Shown here: positions 1,523-17,431 of the stretch, one piece after another | Numbering within the stretch: position 1 is the first letter of the stretch | Layout: every line of letters begins with the position of its first letter | Assembly: GCA_965233585.1 (NCBI GenBank) | Contig: CBDDTI010000284.1 | Coordinates: 1-17,431 of the forward strand | Source: a bacterium | Lineage (GTDB): Bacteria > SAR324 > NAC60-12 | Length of the DNA: 17,431 nt | Direction: 5' to 3' | The notes under the pieces: generated by a model | Database searches by the model: none | Told to the model about the DNA's origin: nothing | Seen by the model: only the letters and a program-made list of their open reading frames with translations | Made by a program: the position numbers and the translations under genes

Positions 1523-2218
1523 TTAAACAGTAACGTAGGCTTTCATTAATCCTTCATAAGGAAAGATGTTACTTCGAATTCTGACTTTATCGTCTTGCTG
1601 TTGATGAAAATCTAGAAGAAGATATCCGTGACTTCGACCGTTAACTGCTTCTCTATACGCTTTATTTAAGATTCCAACACGACCGGGAAAAATTTGTTTT
1701 GCCAAATGTGTGACGGCGCTTCTGTCCCGCGGATTGTTAAAAAGGATCATGTATTGCGTATTTATGCTTAATGTCCGTAAATCGCCTTTTTTGTCAAATA
1801 AATTTTGACAAAGAAAAATGGTGAAACAATTGTAATGATGGGTCAAAACCGTAAAAAAATGTTTTAATATTTGCCCAACATCGTCTAAATAATCGTCAAA
1901 AACAATCAATTTGGGCATTTTTCTCGGATATAATTCTAAAATATCTTTCAACTCTTCAATTGAATTTGGAATATTTTTGAATTTACGAAAAGACGGAAAT
2001 TGTGTGTCAGAACCTCTGCCCTCGTTCATGTCGTCTTCCATGTACTGATATGCTTTTTGCGGTTCCTTGTAAAACAACAACATTGTTTCAGGCGGAGTTG
2101 CAAAATATTCGTGCCGACGAAGCACTAAATGTTTTAGCCACGTTGTTTTTCCGCTTGATGTTGGACCAACAACCAACATGTTGGACGGAATATTAAACCT
2201 CAAATCAAAACCGTTCAT
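1523..2218 (-). CDS. A32/FtsK-HerA-like genome packaging ATPase
   Basis: Walker A GPTSSGKT, Walker B LIVFDD, then THHYNCFTIFLCQNLF and RTLSINTQYMILFNNPRD, typical of Polinton ATPases. Confidence 0.93.
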   Translation of the reverse strand: MNGFDLRFNIPSNMLVVGPTSSGKTTWLKHLVLRRHEYFATPPETMLLFYKEPQKAYQYMEDDMNEGRGSDTQFPSFRKFKNIPNSIEELKDILELYPRKMPKLIVFDDYLDDVGQILKHFFTVLTHHYNCFTIFLCQNLFDKKGDLRTLSINTQYMILFNNPRDRSAVTHLAKQIFPGRVGILNKAYREAVNGRSHGYLLLDFHQQQDDKVRIRSNIFPYEGLMKAYVTV

Positions 2219-2284: not shown

Positions 2285-5200
2285 TTATTTACAAATTTGA
2301 CATTTAGACATTTTGTTGTTAACAATAAGACTATTTCCTAACGATAAAGTGTGACATCCGCAATTTAAAACATATCTTTTGGAATCCATTGCCGACAACG
2401 CAATTTTTCTTTGAAAACACGTCCGGATTTTGTGATTCTTTGATCTTAAATTTTTAAAAGATTTGTAAATTACAACAGTTTGCTTTAAGCACTTTTTGTA
2501 ATCTGCATAAGTTAATTGCTTTTTTATACTAGATTTTTTTAAACCTTTGCATACTTTTTTCTCATCAGTTTTGTTTTTGTCCAAAAAATCGACTATTTTC
2601 ATGGAATAACATTTTGGACGTAAGCCTATAAAATCAGTAATAGCCGCTCTACCTTTTAATTCGTCTTTGAAATAAAAAAGTTGATTGGCTTTACTGTCGT
2701 CAAAAAGTGGATGTTGTTTAGGGTACTTTGAAAAATCAAACATGTGTTTCAATCTCTCCATTTCCCTTTCCAAATTGTTGCATTTAACTTTTAAAAGAAA
2801 AGAATCCGTGTCCGAAAAACACAAAGATACATTGTCTTTGCCGAAATGTTTTTGAATGGTGTCATAGTATGATCTGTACATAAACAACTTGGACAACTCT
2901 AGAATGGAAAATCCGACGGCTAAAGGCTTTCTAAGTTCTATCATTGCCGGCTTCTTGTTGACAGCCACCAAATTCTCATTAATGATTTGAAAATTGTTGA
3001 TGTGTTGACCAAGACTGGCTTTCCTCAGACTTTTTTCATCTCCACAAAGGACCACTTCGATGTAATTTCGAACATTTTCTAAAAATATAAAATAAAATAA
3101 ATATTCTATAAAAAATTCAACATTTTTATAAAAATTCATTATTAAGTGTGTAGGAGTTTAGAGATTTGTTTTTTAAAAACTTCCCAAAACCATGTGGTAA
3201 TTTTCAAAACAAACTTGAAGCAGAAGGAGGAGGAGGAAGAAGAAAAAGGAAAATGATGATGATGGAGATGAGGAGGGGGTACAGGAGGTTAAAGGAGGAA
3301 AGGGAGGAAGATGAAGAGCCGCTTTTAACAGCGAAGAAGAAGGAGGAGGTGGAGGAGAAGAGGAAGAACCGGAGACCGGGCCTGATCCGGCGGATCCGGT
3401 CGGCCGTGGCCGACATTTTTGATGCTCCGCCGTCCGCTGCCGCCTCCGCCACCGCCAGCGCCGCTGCTGTTGCACTCTCTGTTGGCGTTGCTGTGCTCGC
3501 CGCCAACGGTGCTGGCGGCGGCGGAGGCGGCAGTGGTCGCGCTGTCCGAGGCCTTCAAAACGAAAATTTTATTGAATTTGACGTGCCCACCGACATTCTT
3601 GTCGACCTCCCCACCAACGCCCCCACCGAGTCCCCCATCGAGATGCTCATTGAGGTCCCCACCGCCGAAATTCCCTCTAACGTCCCCACCGAGGCGCTTA
3701 TCGAAGCTACCACCGAATCCCCCATCGAGATGCTCATCGAAGCCCCCACCGACGAAATTCCCTCCAACGTTCCCACCGAAATGCTAATCGAGGTCCCCGT
3801 CCCCACCAAGATGCTCATCAAAGCCCCCACCGCTGAAATTCCCTCCAACGTCCCCACCGAGGTGCTAATCGAGGTCTCCGTCCCCACCGAGGCGCCCATC
3901 GAGGCCCCCACCGAGTTCCCCGCCGAGGCGTTTATCGAGTTCCCCATCGAAATCCCTACTGACGACCCCATCGAGGCTCCCATCCCCTTTAGACTCCCCG
4001 CCGACGACAGATCTATTGCCGCCAGACGTCGGGCAACGGAGATTGTCCGCCTGGCTAAAATCCGGGCAGCGGAAAACCGGATGGCGGATTTCAGCGGGGA
4101 GGTTATCACCGTGGAGGCCGAGATCCACGCGCCCCCCGACAACAACGAAGATGCGGATGAGCGTGTGGTGTGTACTGCCAACACATTCTGCACGAAATAT
4201 TGGCAGTACCACCGCACGCTTGTGCAAATATAAAAATATAAAAAAGATTTTAAATCTGAGTATTTACTTACCGATAAACTTTCCAAAAGTAGAGTTGGCA
4301 AAAAGCTTAAAAAGTCGAAGTTCAAAATCGTTGCGGGCGTTTGATCGTAGCATCGTGACCTTTTCAATAAACTCCTTCAAAAAAGCTTTTTGCCGAAACT
4401 TTACGGCTCTTCTTATCCTCAACAGCTTCATGCCTTTTTTCAAGTAGTATTGTAGATTTTCCAGATGCACCACGTACTTTTTTCGATCATAAAAAGTGCT
4501 CAACAGTTTCTTGCTTCGGTATCTTTTGTTCTTATAATCTCGAGGGTTGAGATGTTTTAGTAAACGGCGATTATAAGGAGACAGATGTTTGTAAGAAACC
4601 GTGTCTGTATACGGAGCCAGCGGAAATTGATCATGTGTCTGTAAATATTTTACCGTTTATCAAAAAATGCAAAAAACGTGTTAAAAAGATCAGATTTACC
4701 GGGTGAAGATGAGAAGGATAATGCAAATCAACTTCAAATGCGTACCCGGTCTCGTCTTGAGAAGGAATCTTGATAATATCTTTGGCAGTCCATTTTTCAA
4801 GATCTTTTTTTGCAACCCACTCGAAATCAGAAACTGGCAATTTTAAAGTTTCCATGCTCCCGTACAAGTTGTTTGCTAAAAAGTCACCGATTTTAAATAA
4901 ATAGATTAATCAAACGATGCAGTATAAAATTACCGTCAATGTAAAGTAAATGATCGCCGCTTTTTCTCGGATTGCTGTTTCCTTTTGCATAACGCTGAGA
5001 GATAAAGCTTTGTCCGCCTCTGATACCCTTTGTAAAAAACTGCTCCATTTCAGGATCGGAATAGATATCCAGAGATCCTGGAGGTTTGGAAGATTCACCC
5101 GCGAGGTTATCTTTTGTTGTTGTAGCTCGTTCAGAGTTTTGATAAAACATAAGCATAACATCAAAACTTAGTCCAGGAATTCCTAAAATTATACGAAATA

Positions 5201-7061
5201 AATTTTATATTCAAACTTTATATGTCAAGCAACAGAAAAGGAAATTTACCTAAGTAATAGATCGGATCCAATTGAAAGTGTTCCATAACCATTTTCCTGT
5301 ATTGAAGAAACGCTTCACATAGCAGGATGACATCCAAAGAACAATAAAGCATCATGTAATCCGCCACATTCTTGCACTTGAACAGTTTGAAGACTTCTTG
5401 CGCATGAGAATAATCCGTTTCCGAGATGTGTTCTTCATTCAATTCGGAATAAAAAGCATCTTTGGTTGGGAGGTTTCGACTTTTTTTCATTTCTTGTAAT
5501 GATTGAAAATGCTCGTAACAAAAAATGCCTTTTCTTTTTAAAAGTTTAAAAGCTTTTGATTTTTGACGGATAGGAATTTTTTGAAATCTTTTCATCTGTT
5601 GTAAAATAGGGAAAGAAAAGTTTGAAGTTTGATTCAAATCTTGGACAAGAGCGTCTAAGCTGGCAGATATGTGCTCTAATGAATCTTGGATTTTAAATTT
5701 GCCCAATGTAAGAGTGCGAAACTTTTCACTGTTTCTAGCCAAGACTTCCGGCATTCTCTTGAATCGGCGAATGTTTAACTCTTCTATGATTAAATGCAAA
5801 TCGTATCTGAAACATTCAATTTGTTAAAAAATTAATTAAAAATAAAGTTAATAAAAAATTTTTACCCTTGAGCGTTGTGGAAAAAAATTGGCGTGTGATA
5901 GGGTCCGGATCTTGTCAAATTACACAGCGAATGAGCCGCACCCATTATTTTTCCTGTGACATGATCGTGATCCAAAACTTTTCTATACTTTTTAGGATGG
6001 GTAGCAAATCGAAGACCGCATATATGACAAACGGTTGCTTTTCGAAACATTTGCCATTCCTCATGGGTGGCTTGAGTTTTGAGAACATCTCTAAATTTTT
6101 GTTTTCTTTCTTCAACCACTTTTTCGTAAAGAGGTATCCGATCCAAAAAACGTTTGGCCGCATCCTCTCCTAAATATTCTTCTTGAAAGAATACTTCATT
6201 TTCGGAGTCCACAAAAATCAGGCTGTAGCCTACCGGTCTATGCACATTTATATCGTCACTTGTGGGAAAAGCACACAAGCATTCCAATTTAGAACAAAGT
6301 CGACATTTAGATCGTTCCTTGTTTCTTTGAAGCACACTTTCAAAATCACAAAATCCCACAACAGGTGCTTTAAACTTATGTTTGTGGTTAGAAAAACTTA
6401 TAGCGGCATTTTTGCCGGGATAGATGGTGCGTTGCTTATCGTAGCAAATCCGCTCATGCTTTTCTTTCTTGGATTTTGATCGGAAACGCAGCAGACATTT
6501 TTCACAGTGAATGTACTTCTGTTGACCCGCTTTGTTAAACGACAACAGTCCGGCCCGATTATTCAAAAAACCTTGGAGTTTTGTAATTTTAAAGAAATGA
6601 TGCTGTTGATTTAAATCTTTGATTTTTTTAGGAAACTTGGAAGGAAAACTCGATTTTTTGGGGCGGGAATTACTCGAAGTTTTATCGGAAGAGATTTTAG
6701 GATCATGTTTTATCATTAACAAATGGAGAGTATTTTCTCTTATATCATTGTTTTTGTTAGTAATAAACCCTAAATTTGAAACGTGACCTTCACTCTCATA
6801 AAGTACGGAAATTGAAATTGGTAAATGACGATTTCTACACAAAAATTTTTTTATGTCACAAAATTGAAGAGGAAACGTAAAACCTTTTATGTTAAATTTT
6901 TTAAGATATTTTATTGGCATTTGACGAAAATCTGTAATGGAAGCAATTTCTGGAAAAAGATGTCTAATGTACAGATAAAGAAAGTTGAATTTATCATATC
7001 GAGTATTCCATTCCAAGCAGTTAGATCTTTTTATATCTCGTGTAATTTCTATAAAATCCAT
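2285..7061 (-). CDS. polB: Protein-primed family B DNA polymerase (pPolB), spliced; exons 7061-5866, 5806-5250, 5182-4934, 4875-4700, 4638-4272, 3078-2285; 1112 aa
   Basis: Exons total 3339 nt and all splice phases agree. Motifs: ExoI FCDFES, EndoVII-like CHICG...DHDH...GAAHSLCN, ExoII HNAQGYD, ExoIII YCSLDVILL, IRGG, motif A YIDANNLYG, motif B KLFANSTFGK, motif C SDTDS, LRPKCY, KG. Confidence 0.93.
3253..4233 (+). CDS. Nested intronic gene: 326-aa protein with charged N-terminus, Ala/Val hydrophobic segment, Gly linker and P-T/I-E repeat stalk
   Basis: Uninterrupted GC-rich ORF (first in-frame ATG at 3253; frame open from 3166) lying wholly inside pPolB intron 5 on the opposite strand. TATAAAAA-like boxes at ~3107 and ~3127. 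Confidence 0.72.
   Translation: MMMMEMRRGYRRLKEEREEDEEPLLTAKKKEEVEEKRKNRRPGLIRRIRSAVADIFDAPPSAAASATASAAAVALSVGVAVLAANGAGGGGGGSGRAVRGLQNENFIEFDVPTDILVDLPTNAPTESPIEMLIEVPTAEIPSNVPTEALIEATTESPIEMLIEAPTDEIPSNVPTEMLIEVPVPTKMLIKAPTAEIPSNVPTEVLIEVSVPTEAPIEAPTEFPAEAFIEFPIEIPTDDPIEAPIPFRLPADDRSIAARRRATEIVRLAKIRAAENRMADFSGEVITVEAEIHAPPDNNEDADERVVCTANTFCTKYWQYHRTLVQI
3623..3975 (+). repeat. Coding tandem repeats (units of ~87 nt, PIEMLIExPTxEIPSNVPTE, built from short PTE/PIE motifs)
   Basis: Near-identical blocks start at 3634 and 3721 (87 nt apart), with a further copy near 3811. Confidence 0.85.
4639..4699 (-). other. Spliceosomal intron 4 of pPolB (61 nt)
   Basis: GTAAAT...TTACAG; removal restores YPSHLHP|THDQFPLAP. 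Confidence 0.9.
4876..4933 (-). other. Spliceosomal intron 3 of pPolB (58 nt)
   Basis: GTAATT...TTTTAG; removal restores motif A YID|ANNLYG. Confidence 0.93.
5183..5249 (-). other. Spliceosomal intron 2 of pPolB (67 nt)
   Basis: GTAAAT...TTTTAG; removal restores LDPIYYLG|IPGLSFDVML. Confidence 0.92.
5807..5865 (-). other. Spliceosomal intron 1 of pPolB (59 nt)
   Basis: GTAAAA...TTTCAG; removal restores HNAQG|YDLHLII. Confidence 0.92.
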
Positions 7062-7111
7062 TTCCAAAGCTTACTTGAATTTTTCATATACAACAAAATA
7101 AGTCCTTAAAA

Positions 7112-7873
7112 TCAAATATTGGTAATTTGGATGTCGCTAAAAGACAGAGATTCGAATCTCCATCCGGAACCTCTCATCAACAAATCCTCTTCTCGAGTTA
7201 TTAAATTGTTCAATAATTTTTGAACTTTACCTTTTAACGAGCGAGAAGAATCAAAAGACGTGAATTGAATATAGCCGGTTCTTAAAGCAAAGACATCTCG
7301 ATCGCTAGGCATTAATTCATGTGACGACTGATCAAAACTTTTTTCAGTTGAATCATCAATGTTGCTAACAACCGTTTGAGGCTGTGATGAAGTATTATCA
7401 ACAACAGCTTCCGTCTCAGTGTCTTTGTCTTTTGTAGCTGAATTCAAATCAGGAATCTGATACGCCGCTGATAAAATTAAAGCAACTTTTACTGTAAAGG
7501 TTTTACTTAATTCATGACGAATAACATCAACAATTTCTTGTCTATTTGTTCTATTAACAACAAAGGCGTGAAGCGTTTCTGTAGAAAATATATGTTTCCG
7601 AAAAATTTTGATTTTACCGTTTAAAGCAGATTTAAAAAGAGAGTAATTTAAGTCTTCTAAATGAGAGGAATCGATGTGAGAGACCAAATCATTTCTTGAT
7701 TTAAAGGAACTTAATTCATTCTTACAAAACGGGCACTGAAGCGATTGATTTAATGGAGTCCGATTTCGGAATTTTGACGATGTTTCACGATGACGAAACA
7801 ATTCATGTTTGTCTCGGGAAGATTTTCTAGTAAACGATTTTTGGCATTCGCGGCAGATGTAGGATTTTGGCAT
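7112..7873 (-). CDS. Putative stand-alone terminal protein (pPolB N-terminal region) with two N-terminal C2H2 zinc fingers
   Basis: CRECQKSF...KHELFRH and CPFC...SHIDSSH fingers. The C-terminal EEDLLMRGSGWRFESL matches the GSGW motif of the N-terminal (terminal protein) region of Polinton pPolBs. Ends 50 bp before the polymerase ATG. Confidence 0.7.
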   Translation of the reverse strand: MPKSYICRECQKSFTRKSSRDKHELFRHRETSSKFRNRTPLNQSLQCPFCKNELSSFKSRNDLVSHIDSSHLEDLNYSLFKSALNGKIKIFRKHIFSTETLHAFVVNRTNRQEIVDVIRHELSKTFTVKVALILSAAYQIPDLNSATKDKDTETEAVVDNTSSQPQTVVSNIDDSTEKSFDQSSHELMPSDRDVFALRTGYIQFTSFDSSRSLKGKVQKLLNNLITREEDLLMRGSGWRFESLSFSDIQITNI

Positions 7874-7973
7874 TTCTGTTAAAATTCTGAAACAAAATTT
7901 ATTGACGCGTGAAATTTAGAAATAATATATACAAACACATTAAAACTATATAGCTCAGACTAATTAATACAAA

Positions 7974-10882: not shown

Positions 10883-11905
10883 TTATACGGGAGTAGACAA
10901 ATTTAGCCTGGTAGAAAGAGAAGGGTCAACGGTTATTGAAGAATCCGCTGCAGGTTCCGTCCGAGGCATGTTGAATAACGGAGGAATCATGCTTGAAAAG
11001 TACGGTCGTCTATGATAAACCTAAAAAATAATTTATATATAATAAGCGATTTAAAAATAATAATAAATTTCCTACCGTATACTCGGTGTTGGTCGCTTTA
11101 TCTACTTTTTCGGGAATTGGCAAAAAAGTAGTTGCATCGGACGGCAACGCCGATGCAGTTGACTCAAACGGCAAAATTTCGACGCTTGATTCTTCCACAG
11201 CCTCGTCGTTTGCCGATGAATCTGCAGCAGCTTGTATTGAAATCATTTCAATAGGCTAAAAAAAAAAATAGAGTAGACAAAATATTTTATAAAATGCAAT
11301 AATCATACTTCGACATTAGACGGTTGTTGGTGGTGATGGCTCAGTCTTCTTAATTTGTACATTATTATGGCGAACGTTACAAAAATGAAGACGAACACCG
11401 ATCCGACAAATATCTTGAAGACATCTGAAAATAATGAGGTATTTGTATAAAATGTTGACTTGAAAGAAAATAATCAATACTTACTGTCAAAAATTGCGGA
11501 GTCAAAACCCGCAAAGGAGAAACTATTATGTATTGTTGATACATTAGGCGAAGCGGAAAAGGTCGGTGGATTAAAAGTGGTGGCAGAACCGGTGCTTGTT
11601 TCCAACACAGGCGCGGGTGAAGTGACAGTCGTGGTTGAGAGAGTAGAGCTCGTCAAAGTGGTAGCAACGGTAGTGGGCGGGACGGTGGTAGTACTGGTAG
11701 AAGTCGTGGTGCTTGAAGTGGAAGAGGCGGTTGTAGTGGTTGATGCAAAGTCAGTCGTAGGCGTGATGGTTGTTTCAGAAGAATTGGAAGATGCGACAAT
11801 TTTAGCGAGGAGATTTTTTAGTAAAGTGATGTCTTCCTCGCATGAAATTTTTTGTGCCAAATAAAAGGCCCAAATAACGAAGACGATGATAATGTTGAAG
11901 TTCAT
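10883..11905 (-). CDS. Spliced 284-aa type I membrane mucin-like protein (exons 11905-11485, 11424-11309, 11255-11076, 11020-10883)
   Basis: Introns of 60, 53 and 55 nt (GTAAGT..TTTCAG, GTATGA..TTTTAG, GTAGGA..TTTTAG) give 855 nt in frame. Signal peptide, S/T-rich ectodomain, TM IFVGSVFVFIFVTFAIIMY followed by KLRR, tail ending LSTPV. Confidence 0.87.
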
Positions 11906-12778: not shown

Positions 12779-13292
12779 GAAGTTGCAGCAAATGTTTATA
12801 CAAAGACGTGTGATGTATTACTGAAATAGTTTATGACATAAAAATAATAAATTTTAAATTAAGCGCGCTCTTTTATTTTAAAATTAAGGATAATAGTCTG
12901 CTACTTAAAAATTAGACACAGCAGCAGAAAAATCATCCAAAAAATCAAAATAAAAACAAACGTGATTTTTTCTGTTAATAAATAATTGCGACATTTGGTT
13001 GAGTTGAGAATCTTTTCGTAAACACCGATAAACAATAACTGTTGAAAAGTTGAACATGTATATATTTTTGATAAAATTATCGAGCGGAAATTATTGTTTA
13101 TGACAATAGCTTTGGTGCGAGTTATGATTTGTTGACGCAAAACGAGTTGCGCTTTAATTTGTGTTTGTTTTGGAAAACGGAAATTCAAACATTGTCGTTC
13201 TCAGAACCTTTCTTCGCGCCCCCGAACTGATTCAAGACGTGGAAAGTGGGAAAAATTGAGGTTGCAAACGGCTTGCAATCGGCTTGCAACAG

Positions 13293-13550
13293 GCCGATTG
13301 CAGACGAAAACAAGCCGATTACAGGCTCGATTGAGCCTGTTGCAAGCCGATTGCAGACGAAAACAAGCCGATTGCAGGCTCGATTGAGCCTGTTGCAAGC
13401 CGATTGCAGACGAAAACAAGCCGATTACAGGCTCGATTGAGGTTGTTGCAAGCCGATTGCAGACGAAAACAAGCCGATTGCAGGCTCGATTGAGGTTGTT
13501 GCAAGCCGATTGCAGACGAAAACAAGCCGGTTGCAGACGATTACAAGCCG
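13293..13550. repeat. 53-bp tandem array (~4.5 copies) with internal hairpins
   Basis: Unit gccgattgcagacgaaaacaagccgattRcaggctcgattgagSYtgttgcaa starts at 13293, 13346, 13399, 13452 and 13505. An inverted partial copy lies at ~13275-13293. Confidence 0.95.
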
Positions 13551-13752
13551 ATTTCAGGTTGAAACAACCTTAATGTAGATGCCATCAAGGTGTTTTGAGA
13601 GCGCATCAAGATGGTTTTTATCGGTAAACGGATGGTTGAAAGACGGTTTCAGCCTGTTTTAAGGTGTTTTGAGAACGTTTTAAGGTGATTTTAGAGCGTA
13701 ACAAGCTCGAATGAGAGTGACAAGAAGCACTTCGCAGAAGATGTCAACAGGG
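13551..13752. repeat. Degenerate 10-11-bp periodic tract ending ...TGTCAACAGGG; candidate outer part of a terminal inverted repeat
   Basis: aaggtgttttgaga at 13587 and 13661, ttttaaggtg at 13657 and 13678; periodicity stops at the G-run at 13750-13754. Confidence 0.5.
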
Positions 13753-13790
13753 GGTCTTGGGGATCTTTTACATGTGACATGAATATCCTT

Positions 13791-14040
13791 TCAAGTCAAC
13801 TGACATCTTCACTAAATAAGCATTACATAAATTTCTTGAAGAGCTATTCATATTCATGATTTTTTTTCATTTTAAAAGATATTCAAGTCAAGTGACATCT
13901 TCACTAAATAAGCATTACATAAATTTCTTGAAGAGCTATTCATATTCATGATTTTTTTTCATTTTAAAAGATATTCATGTCAGCTGACATCTCAACTAAA
14001 TATGCACGGCATAAATTTTATGAAGATTCCTTCATATTTA
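13791..14040. repeat. 92-bp tandem repeat, two near-identical copies plus a diverged partial third
   Basis: tcaagtcaaStgacatcttcactaaataagc... at 13791 and 13883; diverged copy at 13975. Confidence 0.9.
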
Positions 14041-14591
14041 CGAAGAAATTATTTTCACATGTGCAAAAGAGCCCTTAAACTTTTGTGTCAGACATCCTTG
14101 TCACTCTATCAACCAGGAAAGTCATCTTGATCTTCTTGATCATGATAACAGCAGCCCTGTCAGTTCTCTGCATCTTGGGGTTGGAATTGATTTGAAGGAA
14201 GTTCTGGAGGAGAAAAGTGAAGGTCAGATTTTTTGCATTGATTTCTTGGGACATTCCCTGAAGCGAGCTCCAATAAGGTGCTCATGTCTTTCAGTGTGAT
14301 GACAGCTCATATCTGGCTGTAGTCTTGGCCTTACCCTGTAACGAGTATGTTGTGTTCTCAGTTGCAAGAATTACAGGAGTTGCCAACCTTTCCACCGAGT
14401 ATGTGGTCTATCAGATGGGCATAAGCTTCAACTTACCTGAAATCCCAAAGGCATTTCCCCATGAGAATGATCTTTTGGTATCCGCCTGGAACCTACCAGT
14501 AGTTGAACCCAGGTCCCAGATAATATAAAGCTGCCCTCTACCATTGAGCTATCCACACACATCCACCCCAGAAAAGGGGTAGCCCGGCCAG

Positions 14592-14671: not shown

Positions 14672-16143
14672 ATGCCAGGCTCCCAGGAAAGGCCTACAAA
14701 ACCTAATAGATATTTAAGGCAATAAAGCACTATGTTTCTTTGAAGAATTGATATCTGTTCGATGGCAAATGCACACTAAGAAATTAAACAATAGGCACGT
14801 AGCTGTTACTCTTTGCACAATACCACTTGAAGCTAGCCTCTTGTTGGCACAGCAATCCCCTTGATGAAAGTTCCTGTCTCAGCACAAATCAAGGTCATGT
14901 AATCCTCCTCTCCAAAGTCACCAAAGCGGTTGACATTCTAAGGGATCTACACCATGTAGTCTGAGAAGTTGGTCTTCTGGAGCCTCAGCTTCTTGCTCCC
15001 GGGACACACATATAACAAACACTCATCTGAGGTTCCATGGATACCAGGTCAGCTAATTCCCAAATCTCCACATTATCCCTATCTTCAGTCTTTTCCGAAA
15101 AACCCTCTTTGGTCTTGTCAATGAAGCTGGCATTCTTTATGCTGTCTACCTTGCATTTTTCTACATCCTAGACCAGGAAGTAAGTGCCGAAGAAGAACTG
15201 GGACTAGAAATTCCGGGAGATAGGGAGATCTATCTCTGGGGTCAATTTCAGTAGTGTGACCCTGATTGAGATCCTAAATTGGAAATTCCAGATTTTCCTG
15301 ATCTCTGGGAGTGTCCCAGAGCTGGAGGGGAATGGAGCTATCATATGTTGCTGTCCGGGTCCACAGTAACACCAACTGCTACAGCCCTGTCCTTGGAGCC
15401 CGCGGCAAACCCATGCTTAGGAACAAACTCACATATGTGGAAAATTTTCGAGATTGAATCGCTTCAATCTCGAAAATTATCCTTTACCAATCTTTCAGAA
15501 TGTTCTCTACCCAAATTCATGGATAACGGTTTTGGTGAATCGAATTGTTGTCCCTCAGGTGTGCCCAATTCTCTTGTTTATGGCATGCAGTTTTGTTGTC
15601 CAGTCGGGAATTGTCACCCCTGCCTGGACGGATTAGAAGTTTCGGTTACGACCCCCAGGAAAACTGCATCGTTATAAGGCAGATGTTTCCGTCGGACCGT
15701 TAGGTCGCGACATTTATCTCATTAAGAGATGAATAGTAAACGAGACTTTCCCCACCCCCAAAGGGTTGGAAACTGGAAACTGTTTGTGAGAAAACAATCA
15801 TAAAATGAGTTGTTTTGCCCCTCGAAATACCAGGTCTTTCGAGGGGTAACGGTTTCCGACTTGGCTTCTCTTTGGGGATGAGAACAAAATGCGCACTTGT
15901 ATTCTAGGAACCACGGTGATAACTGGTCCGAGGTTTTCACTCGTATATCCGACCTTAAAGTTTGTAATAACTCTAAACTATCTTGCTCTCGAAAATACAA
16001 GGCCGGCTCTGTTAAAAAGATCTCTGGTTATAGTCTCTTCAAATTTGGCTAGTTCTTGTTTGACTCCCTTCGGTCATTAAAGTGAAGGCTGTTTGATCGT
16101 CTGGTCCGCTTTGTCGAAGAAGCGTCCGCCAGACTTTTGACAT

Positions 16144-16164
16144 TGGTGCATCGTCCGGAAATCG
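16144..16164 (+). promoter_or_regulatory. Primer-binding site complementary to the 3' end of tRNA-Gly
   Basis: TGGTGCATCGTCCGGAAATCG versus the recalled reverse complement of invertebrate tRNA-Gly(GCC) plus CCA, TGGTGCATCGGCCGGGAATCG (2 mismatches). Confidence 0.75.
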
Positions 16165-16312
16165 CATAAACCTCCCGGACTACCAACGATGCTGAAGAGC
16201 TCAGGATCTAGAGTCGTTGTATATAGAGTGTACAGTAGTTAGTGTTAGTGATAAAACTTTTTATTTTTGTGTTAGTATTTTTACAGACAATCGAAACAAT
16301 CTTTATTACAAA

Positions 16313-17431
16313 ATGGATCAAAGACTTAAAGTAGCTGAAAATCAGGGTGAAGAAGACGCCAACATGGTCACCGCCGTGGAGGACACCCGGCTATTGGACA
16401 GAGATGTCACAATGGTCCGGGAGACCGAAACGCCATGACCAGCAACGGCCCCTACAGGAATCGCAAGACCGACGGTGAGGGACAGTCCAAGTCTGTCGGA
16501 ACAACATCTGCAACACCGACAACAGCCTCACTACTCTAGTCAAGGGTCAAACTCCGAGCGGGAAAGTGCGGACGAGGAACTTCAGACCGAAGTCAGGATC
16601 CGGCGAGCTATGGAAAGAAACGGTAGGTTGGTCGACCTCACCGAAAGAATGACAACAGAAAGGGACAAAGCGATGAGGAACCCAACACATTGGAATCGCT
16701 CGGTGTTGGAAGCTTTCGTCCTGGACAACGCCAACGCCTTGGTGAAGTCGGCCGCCGACCAAAGCGTCAATTTCAGGCTCGCAGGACCGGAACAGGAGGT
16801 GATTCTGTCACCCCTCCTCGACGACAGCCTCGCTCGCGAACGAATGATCCTGATGGCGCGGATGGATCAAAACATCAGGATATCCCAGGTAGTGCGAGTT
16901 TACTCAAGGGAGGACAAGGATTTGTATTACTTCATGGCCATGGAAGCGGGGATGGAGATGCTAAAACGCAGGGAGTACCGGATTGACGACTGGTACCGGA
17001 GGAGGACTGAGACGTGGGGAACACTCGACACGTTCCTTGATCAGCTCAGAGAATCCATGACCCTAGCCGGAGGCAACCCCGAACAACTCCAAAGGTTCAT
17101 GACGAGGTATACAGGTCTGGCCAGAACCCTCTTCTTCGAAGGAGTAATTTCGTGCATCTTGGCGGTCCTTGGACATCCCGGTAACTTCGAACATTTCGTC
17201 CGGGACCGAGAGATAAAACTGATGGAGTCACCGCACGCACCCGTCCGCGTCATGCTACAGTGTGTGGAGCTGATGCATCAGGCTGGACTGCACGTCCCTC
17301 TACTCCACCGGGACTACTTTCTTCGCGCAAGGGACCAGGCACGTTATCTCGCGGAGCGGAAGACGTTGGCCAACAAGGTCTTGGAACAAGAGAGACAGAG
17401 AGAGGAGCAGAGGGAACGTCAAATTACCACC
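16313..17431 (+). pseudogene. Gag-position ORF of the retrotransposon with one in-frame TGA (16436-16438); runs off the window
   Basis: The frame from ATG 16313 stays open for 331 codons after the TGA to the window end (MDQRLKV...ETP*PATAPTG...EQRERQITT). The downstream part is absent from the ORF track because it has no stop. No diagnostic Gag motif seen. Confidence 0.55.

Follow-up and report, generated by a model that had tools for sequence, protein, structure and literature searches.

The window analysed here, a contig of 17,431 nucleotides (CBDDTI010000284.1 of assembly GCA_965233585.1, binned with a bacterium of the SAR324 lineage), carries on its minus strand, between positions 2285 and 7061, what appears to be the gene for a DNA polymerase of family B that is protein-primed (pPolB), from a Polinton (Maverick/adintovirus-type) element. 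Translated exon by exon, the gene consists of six exons with 3339 nt, i.e. 1112 codons and a stop, free of internal stop codons. A sequence-only reading of this DNA had proposed an intact gene with five GT-AG introns in the phases 2, 1, 1, 0 and 1, and the donor and acceptor pairs lie exactly where it had placed them. The reading frame of its 1112-aa polymerase can indeed be rebuilt, although the product is not a whole canonical pPolB, since the terminal protein (TP) part is a separate upstream open reading frame (ORF).

The polymerase gene and its introns

Exon 1 (5866..7061, 1196 nt) encodes a vOTU domain, the exonuclease motif ExoI, an endonuclease-VII-like insert and the start of ExoII. 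Intron 1 (5807..5865, 59 nt, phase 2) lies within the ExoII motif, the remainder of which is found together with ExoIII in exon 2 (5250..5806, 557 nt). Intron 2 (5183..5249, 67 nt, phase 1) is followed by exon 3 (4934..5182, 249 nt), whose 3' end is the start of polymerase motif A, and intron 3 (4876..4933, 58 nt, phase 1) lies within that motif. Exon 4 (4700..4875, 176 nt), intron 4 (4639..4699, 61 nt, phase 0) and exon 5 (4272..4638, 367 nt), which contains motif B, come next. Intron 5 (3079..4271, 1193 nt, phase 1) begins just 3' of motif B, and exon 6 (2285..3078, 794 nt) carries motif C and the stop. All five introns have GT-AG ends. Of the three introns that had been suggested to cut in or beside core motifs, introns 1 and 3 lie inside them, and intron 5 follows motif B and is not inside it. 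ExoI to ExoIII and the polymerase motifs A to C were all found in the spliced product. A Pfam scan of the exon ORFs gave no PolB family match, and a PDB sequence search with exon 6 gave no match. The endonuclease-VII-like zinc domain (PF02945, E 1.8e-5) occupies 5913-6068 on the minus strand in the exonuclease region and is also present in several single-ORF homologs.

Within 15 nt of each boundary there is just one frame-keeping GT/AG pair per intron, and retention of any single intron leads to a stop after 1-22 codons. The GC content of the four short introns is 12-25%, compared with 32-41% in the exons, and that of intron 5 is 53%, which is due to an antisense ORF inside it. The segments have the features of U2-type introns, namely GT-AG ends, a frame-keeping position and ends that are conserved over the interior. 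Among the joints listed for four contig runs, none falls at an intron boundary, which does not count for or against splicing.

To place the junctions, an X was inserted at each of them and the residue counts across the junction were compared with 35 single-ORF homologs. The counts agree in all 35 at junctions 1, 2, 3 and 5 and in 30 of the 35 at junction 4, so that the spliced protein is colinear with pPolBs, as the sequence-only reading expected of an intact gene. Identity to single-ORF pPolBs is 31-36% over ~950-1150 columns in the top 20 rows, with P0002 (residues 227-1294) as the best match, and the spliced product qualifies as a protein-primed family B polymerase.

The same assembly contains 52 pPolB loci in which at least one junction could be placed, and all five were placed in 39. 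Loci with introns fall into five families, A (11 loci, including the window), B (17), C (10), D (2, and the partial locus C93) and E (2). Diverged as they are, these families have intron positions and phases in common. The ends are GT-AG in 190 of 191 well-anchored introns, the sole exception being in a copy with stops and a frameshift, and intron lengths ignore the reading frame (48, 77 and 66 introns in the three mod-3 classes). Because of poor anchors, the intron count leaves out four rows of the intron-less group, with gaps of 7-21 nt, and two rows of family B. Intron 5 is short in families C, D and E (55-74 nt) and long in A (1.08-1.35 kb) and B (0.9-2.3 kb). Intron 2 is exactly gone, with a zero-length gap, in 10/10 family-C loci, as is intron 4 in both family-E loci. 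In nine more distant loci the gap is zero where the junction could be placed, which was the case in 6 loci for junction 1 and in 5 for junction 5.

Exons 2-5 are in frame and stop-free in 38 of the 39 loci, and all 11 family-A copies have six full exons. Exon dN/dS is 0.03-0.10 in ten family-A comparisons and 0.115-0.116 in two comparisons of A with B. Between A and C or D synonymous sites are saturated (pS 0.84-0.86, pN 0.29), and intron sequence identity between A and C, D or E is down to 45-63%. Introns within one gene are dissimilar (17 of 19 pairs with z < 2 against shuffles, highest 2.9), i.e. they do not form an introner family.

In a tree obtained by a quick search, the spliced families form one clade (SH-aLRT 100) beside the single-ORF P0002, with A and B separated from C, D and E. 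As all five introns occur on both sides of this split, five ancestral introns and two exact losses are the simplest reading, and we infer that the five were present in the ancestor of the clade. The exactness of the losses suggests that a spliced cDNA intermediate was probably involved.

In family E, exon 1 of the polymerase gene holds a 220-nt inverted-repeat miniature transposable element (MITE) with a 3-nt target duplication (C98:7387-7606, C212:69454-69673). Its span from GT to AG is 223 nt, which equals the inserted length, as in introners, and only two copies exist in the assembly.

A protein search with family-C exon 1, restricted to lengths of 219-699 aa, returned 52 proteins, 44 of them in the clade. 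All 39 clade members that reach ExoII end at or just past intron 1, 36 of them at the identical residue. The 28 relatives scored by pattern represent 16 clusters at 70% identity, and intron 1 thus appears to be kept across at least 16 such clusters. A search with exon 6 among longer proteins found no full-length protein above 44% identity, and no related loci were found in the viral contigs or GTDB contigs scanned. One metagenome match (L018) was dropped as a bacterial gene read off-frame.

That ORF-based surveys would mis-score such genes as degraded, as the sequence-only reading had foreseen, is demonstrated by these public relatives, which are ~400-aa fragments ending at intron 1. A survey of vertebrate Mavericks scored GeneWise 'introns' as decay and required intronless ORFs for 'intact' (PMC8097293). 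There, as in the description of nematode Mavericks (10.1101/2022.07.12.499685), core genes are described as intronless, with introns in cargo genes only. A whole intact lineage would fail such intronless-ORF filters, and protein sets already hold it as ~400-aa fragments only.

A separate terminal protein gene and an altered vOTU domain

Single-ORF homologs are ~200 residues longer at the N-terminus, and the extra part corresponds to the ORF upstream of the polymerase gene (7112..7873, minus strand, 253 aa), which comprises two C2H2 fingers and a TP domain of the PRD1/adenovirus type and matches the N-terminus of P0002 (E 1.7e-5). In every spliced-family locus listed, the TP ORF stops shortly past a conserved Gly-Ser-Gly-Trp loop and the polymerase ATG follows. 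The spacer from TP stop to polymerase ATG (7062..7111, minus strand, 50 nt) has stops in all three frames in the window; across copies and families, neither its frame nor its length, which ranges from 2 nt to ~100 nt, is constant. The canonical fusion of TP and polymerase is therefore absent, in contrast to the control, the single-ORF element of this genome (C492), which is fused. The profile search with the TP covers the best 150 matches, which are crowded by multi-zinc-finger proteins. P0151 (610 aa), considered as a possible fusion of TP and polymerase, was rejected as a chimera of TP-like and minor-capsid-like parts.

An AlphaFold2 model of the TP based on 30 sequences reaches a pLDDT of 77 (33 without an alignment) and has a topology of four strands and two helices. 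Ten of the 12 top fold matches are Y-family polymerase entries (Z 6.4-8.4), and the match to the little-finger region of 4ir1 has a Z of 8.3 and an rmsd of 2.6 over 95 aligned residues. The best viral Foldseek match is an adintovirus C2H2 protein (E 5e-7). PRD1-type terminal proteins were defined by the same Y-family polymerase match (10.1101/2024.03.18.585575). The model thus predicts a PRD1/adenovirus-type TP with an LF/PAD-like fold. Between alpha2 and beta4, where such proteins have a Ser or Tyr, it places Ser236, which by comparison with that study is the predicted DNA-linking residue.

In the vOTU domain of exon 1 the position of the catalytic Cys (residue 26) is Asn, and His155 is kept. 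Asn is found at this site in all seven spliced representatives and in 32 of the 39 loci (7 not scorable), whereas Cys is present in the fused C492 and in 17/17 single-ORF homologs examined (those 17 of 36 that have the anchor motif). The site is visible in 37 of the 44 public clade relatives, with Asn in 33, other residues in 4 and Cys in none. As judged from these residues, the vOTU protease of the clade lacks its catalytic Cys and would be catalytically dead.

An acceptor-like site lies at 7886-7900 on the minus strand, at a distance of 13 nt from the TP ATG; families A, B and C all have such a site, 12-29 nt before the ATG. It exceeds background only in family C (0-0.7% versus 11-20% of windows), and of the families covered (A, B, C and E) none is found in E. 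As a lead only, it could belong to an untranslated leader intron or a spliced leader shared by TP and polymerase.

The surrounding element and its likely host

Intron 5 holds one antisense ORF in family A and two in B. In the window this nested ORF (3253..4233, plus strand, 326 aa) encodes a charged N-terminus, a hydrophobic stretch, Pro/Thr/Glu/Ile repeats and a conserved Cys-containing C-terminus. It is unbroken in 6 of 11 family-A copies, its C-terminus is homologous to the nested ORF of family B (0/1000 shuffles), and no homologs were found in the contigs of families C-E. The pooled pN/pS of 0.64 is inflated, as a one-codon indel misaligned 4 of 10 rows in the ungapped count; in the 6 usable of the 10 comparisons it is ~0.2-0.3, which indicates purifying selection on the C-terminus. 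The start of the ORF (3190-3260, plus strand) lies in purine-rich and ATG-repeat tracts, whose variable length shifts the frame relative to a conserved upstream ATG.

A second spliced gene (10883-11905, minus strand) encodes a signal-peptide-like start, a Thr/Ser-rich stalk, a transmembrane segment and an acidic tail. It is stop-free exon by exon, and its three GT-AG introns (11484-11425, 11308-11256 and 11075-11021, with 60, 53 and 55 nt) have these ends in 8/8 full copies. The polymerase gene and at least one accessory gene for a membrane protein are the only ones with introns; the ten other core genes of families A and B (~8.3 kb) are without them. In undamaged copies of families A-E, the capsid-like, protease, ATPase, integrase, TBP (TATA-binding protein) and TFIIB genes each give one continuous alignment.

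Directly 3' of the polymerase lies a single ORF for a packaging ATPase of the A32/FtsK-like type (1523..2218, minus strand). This ATPase (Pox_A32, E 0.0027) and an Ulp1/adenain-type protease (Peptidase_C5, E 0.0064) were assigned by matches that both fall below the Pfam cut-offs, and both are conserved as single ORFs in the five families. The rve integrase (PF00665, E 2.6e-9 in family B) is found on sister elements, outside the window contig, with a chromodomain and as a single ORF that is 90% identical in the family-A copies C77, C30 and C670. In addition, the element encodes homologs of TFIIB (PF08271, E 3e-8) and TBP (PF00352, E 2e-16). The latter two genes are adjacent in all five spliced families (e.g. 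L011:6256-7696; homologs in 35 contigs), and the pair was not detected in the 9 intron-less-group contigs checked. Capsid-like ORFs of 444-484 aa and 508-583 aa stand at the expected places and have no Pfam match; by their motifs they are putative double jelly-roll major (MCP) and single jelly-roll minor (mCP) capsid proteins, and the labels MCP, mCP and PW of element ORFs are tentative. Families C, D and E have two tandem major-capsid-like genes (L012:2953-5718), A and B one. A promoter motif common to the late genes was not evident by eye.

The terminal inverted repeats (TIRs) are 541 bp long and 98.7-99.4% identical in two-ended copies, which span 22,850 bp (C77) and 22,886 bp (C30). TIR-bounded elements measure 20.6-23.9 kb, within the 15-25 kb of Polintons. 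The start of the window contig falls within the protease gene, and the TIR of this copy (13190..13720) is missing the last ~20 nt. The claim that the element is potentially functional is supported by the motifs, by the six-exon structure of all family-A copies and by the near-identical TIRs of two-ended copies, but the completeness of this particular copy is not demonstrable. Among the 11 family-A copies, dS is 0.03-0.15 and the flanks are not the same. No flush target-site duplication (5-6 bp in Polintons) was found in 8/8 paired ends; these are ragged, which leaves the true termini uncertain, and the pairs may not be single insertions. Element ends (e.g. C77:2501/25350) bear variable TGT repeats and have a ragged outline that changes from copy to copy, although the element has an intact integrase ORF. 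Tandem repeats of 53 nt lie within the TIR (13237-13554) and repeats of 92 nt just outside the element (13790-14065). A different repeat at 15436-17431, with an open ORF of 331 aa (16439 to the end), has an identity of 90-95% to parts of C224 and C328 that in both cases lie next to related elements.

The bin, an assembly of 12 Mb in 747 contigs of which the window is one in full (C284), is rated 92% complete and 2% contaminated, yet it holds animal histone clusters and dozens of Polinton copies. Its small-subunit rRNA genes are ~1510 nt long, a bacterial size, and tandem histone clusters occur in the same assembly. In the 90% cluster to which the H2B belongs, those animal members that are named are bivalves, and near-identical DNA is present in runs of two studies under two organism labels. 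The contig is thus probably animal DNA that was binned with a bacterium. The animal is likely marine and likely a mollusc, the linkage of element and host being putative.

Splicing, its alternatives and known systems

Colinearity, the conservation of positions and phases across families, purifying selection and exact intron loss strongly support an intact spliced gene, splicing itself being deduced from sequence. We conclude, with a probability of roughly 0.85, that this is the polymerase of a multi-copy Polinton, whose five GT-AG segments are likely spliced out to give a 1112-aa protein-primed enzyme that uses a separate TP. The integrated element would be transcribed in the nucleus by host Pol II, as its introns are spliceosomal, and the host spliceosome would remove the five introns from the polymerase pre-mRNA. 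The enzyme may then copy the linear element, starting from a TP that is produced on its own and linked via Ser236. The split of the TP may have made vOTU cleavage unnecessary, parallel to adenoviruses. As unspliced RNA would make no enzyme, splicing could gate replication, and in families A and B intron 5 could provide spare room for accessory genes. That introns occur in the polymerase and an accessory gene but in none of ten core genes suggests spliced early and intronless late genes.

Replication genes of adenoviruses depend on host splicing. The splicing of adenoviral pol and pTP joins short leader exons, in contrast to the introns within catalytic motifs seen here.

Animal Polintons/Mavericks resemble the present element in pPolB, an rve integrase with chromodomain, an adenain-like protease, an A32-like ATPase and capsid-like genes (PMC8097293; 10.1101/2022.07.12.499685), as well as in TIRs of ~540 bp and a size of 21-24 kb. 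They differ in that the present element has five conserved polymerase introns, a separate TP, a vOTU without Cys, the TBP-TFIIB pair and no clean target-site duplication that could be found. The polymerase accordingly departs from a canonical pPolB in the single uninterrupted ORF, the fused TP and the vOTU Cys, with the His kept. A TP on a separate gene, together with a vOTU at the N-terminus of the polymerase, is also described for a coral polinton, the Stylophora coral adintovirus (StCAV), in which the catalytic residues are kept (10.1101/2024.03.18.585575). A split TP is thus already known in a polinton, but with an active vOTU, whereas here the Cys is replaced throughout the clade; the likeness to StCAV is taken from that description, whose available text does not mention introns. 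In the same text, an inactive vOTU with a split TP is reported in adenovirids only. Adenovirids share with the present element the stand-alone TP and the polymerase with an inactivated N-terminal vOTU, but they do not integrate and are without integrase and FtsK-type ATPase, both of which are found here, so that the element does not belong to the Adenoviridae. In addition, the adenovirid TP has a large helical insertion (10.1101/2024.03.18.585575), while the TP here has a disordered insert and C2H2 fingers. Dinoflagellate Polinton-like elements likewise have spliceosomal introns inside full-length elements, which however are young transposon copies, mostly inserted post-integration (10.1101/2025.03.18.643946), whereas those described here are old, mutually unrelated and inherited with the element. 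The literature search, which left subscription papers, Repbase entries and supplements outside its scope, yielded no paper that describes conserved spliceosomal introns within the polymerase of a Polinton, and no polinton with both a split TP and a dead vOTU. For conserved introns, it did not bear out the statement in the sequence-only reading that some lineages are known to have intron-bearing pPolBs; it gave only the introner insertions in dinoflagellate elements.

A more far-reaching proposal, which we advance tentatively and at less than even odds, is that a diverse, undescribed animal polintovirus clade independently evolved an adenovirus-like nuclear programme, with a free TP, a dead vOTU, splicing as the on/off switch of replication, intronless late genes steered by its own TBP and TFIIB, and an intron as antisense cargo bay. 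The introns may instead be real but neutral passengers of a long-resident transposon, one gene of which happened to acquire them, with no regulatory role and no early/late programme, a plausible account that we would still hesitate to call probable. Two families lost one intron each without visible harm, and the drift of intron sequences between A and C, D or E is in keeping with neutrality. On the other hand, intron 1 is apparently kept across the public clusters, the capsid and protease genes are intact, and five introns in the polymerase with none in ten core genes have a chance of ~0.002 if placed independently, although gains need not be independent. It seems improbable that TP and polymerase are made as one protein via a sixth intron, a frameshift or read-through, an uncleaved bidnavirus-like product then explaining the dead vOTU. 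Bidnavirids do have a fused TP with an inactive vOTU (10.1101/2024.03.18.585575), in most family-C loci and in C93 it would take only a shift by one base at a run of Ts to bring the two frames together, and family D has a single in-frame stop between them. But in A and B the spacer stops block all three frames, the 2-3 nt of family C are too short for an intron, and spacer length and frame vary even within families. Moreover, the polymerase ORF of most public relatives has its own ATG ~20-26 residues before the vOTU site, and stand-alone proteins of 210-325 aa, from at least 13 clusters (50% identity), cover the TP profile in full.

Introns in viral regions have been interpreted as incipient domestication (PMC10675990), and a Polinton polymerase that was captured, acquired its introns later and ceased to serve the element would be a domesticated host gene. 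This is very unlikely and largely refuted by the multi-copy context, as the gene is part of elements that are bounded by TIRs and also encode capsid, protease, ATPase and integrase, and the family-A copies are separated by flanks and synonymous divergence. Scarcely tenable is a decayed element whose ORF was broken post-integration by small insertions (MITEs or introners) that mimic introns. The mostly post-integration introners of dinoflagellate elements (10.1101/2025.03.18.643946) and the MITE in family-E exon 1 provide a precedent, but the positions are common to families with saturated synonymous sites, the exons are under purifying selection and the introns of one gene are unlike each other.

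Several observations weigh against the main reading, a Polinton with a spliced polymerase gene and a separate TP. Of the 39 loci, 8 have a truncated exon 1 or 6, owing to contig ends, decay or read errors; 5 of 11 family-A copies have a broken nested ORF; and introns 1 and 3 interrupt catalytic motifs, making any splicing failure costly. No conserved acceptor was found 5' of the polymerase ATG that would explain its translation. The TP fold Z of ~8 is only middling taken alone, and ragged ends without a clean target-site duplication are atypical for integrase-driven insertion. Finally, the tree is a quick search with long branches that comprises neither adenovirus nor StCAV sequences, and convergence with adenoviruses therefore rests on the 35% full-length identity to Polinton pPolBs.

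If splicing takes place as concluded, ancient introns in catalytic motifs would make replication dependent on the host nucleus and speak against a cycle in the cytoplasm that relies on giant viruses. Exact intron loss and the family-E MITE provide a small system for viral intron gain and loss. On the proposed route to adenoviruses, the stage after StCAV is one with a split TP and a dead vOTU (10.1101/2024.03.18.585575), and the clade makes this transition testable. Should the adenovirus-like programme prove true, it would be a living model of the transition from polintons to adenoviruses, hidden because ORF surveys cut the polymerase at intron 1.

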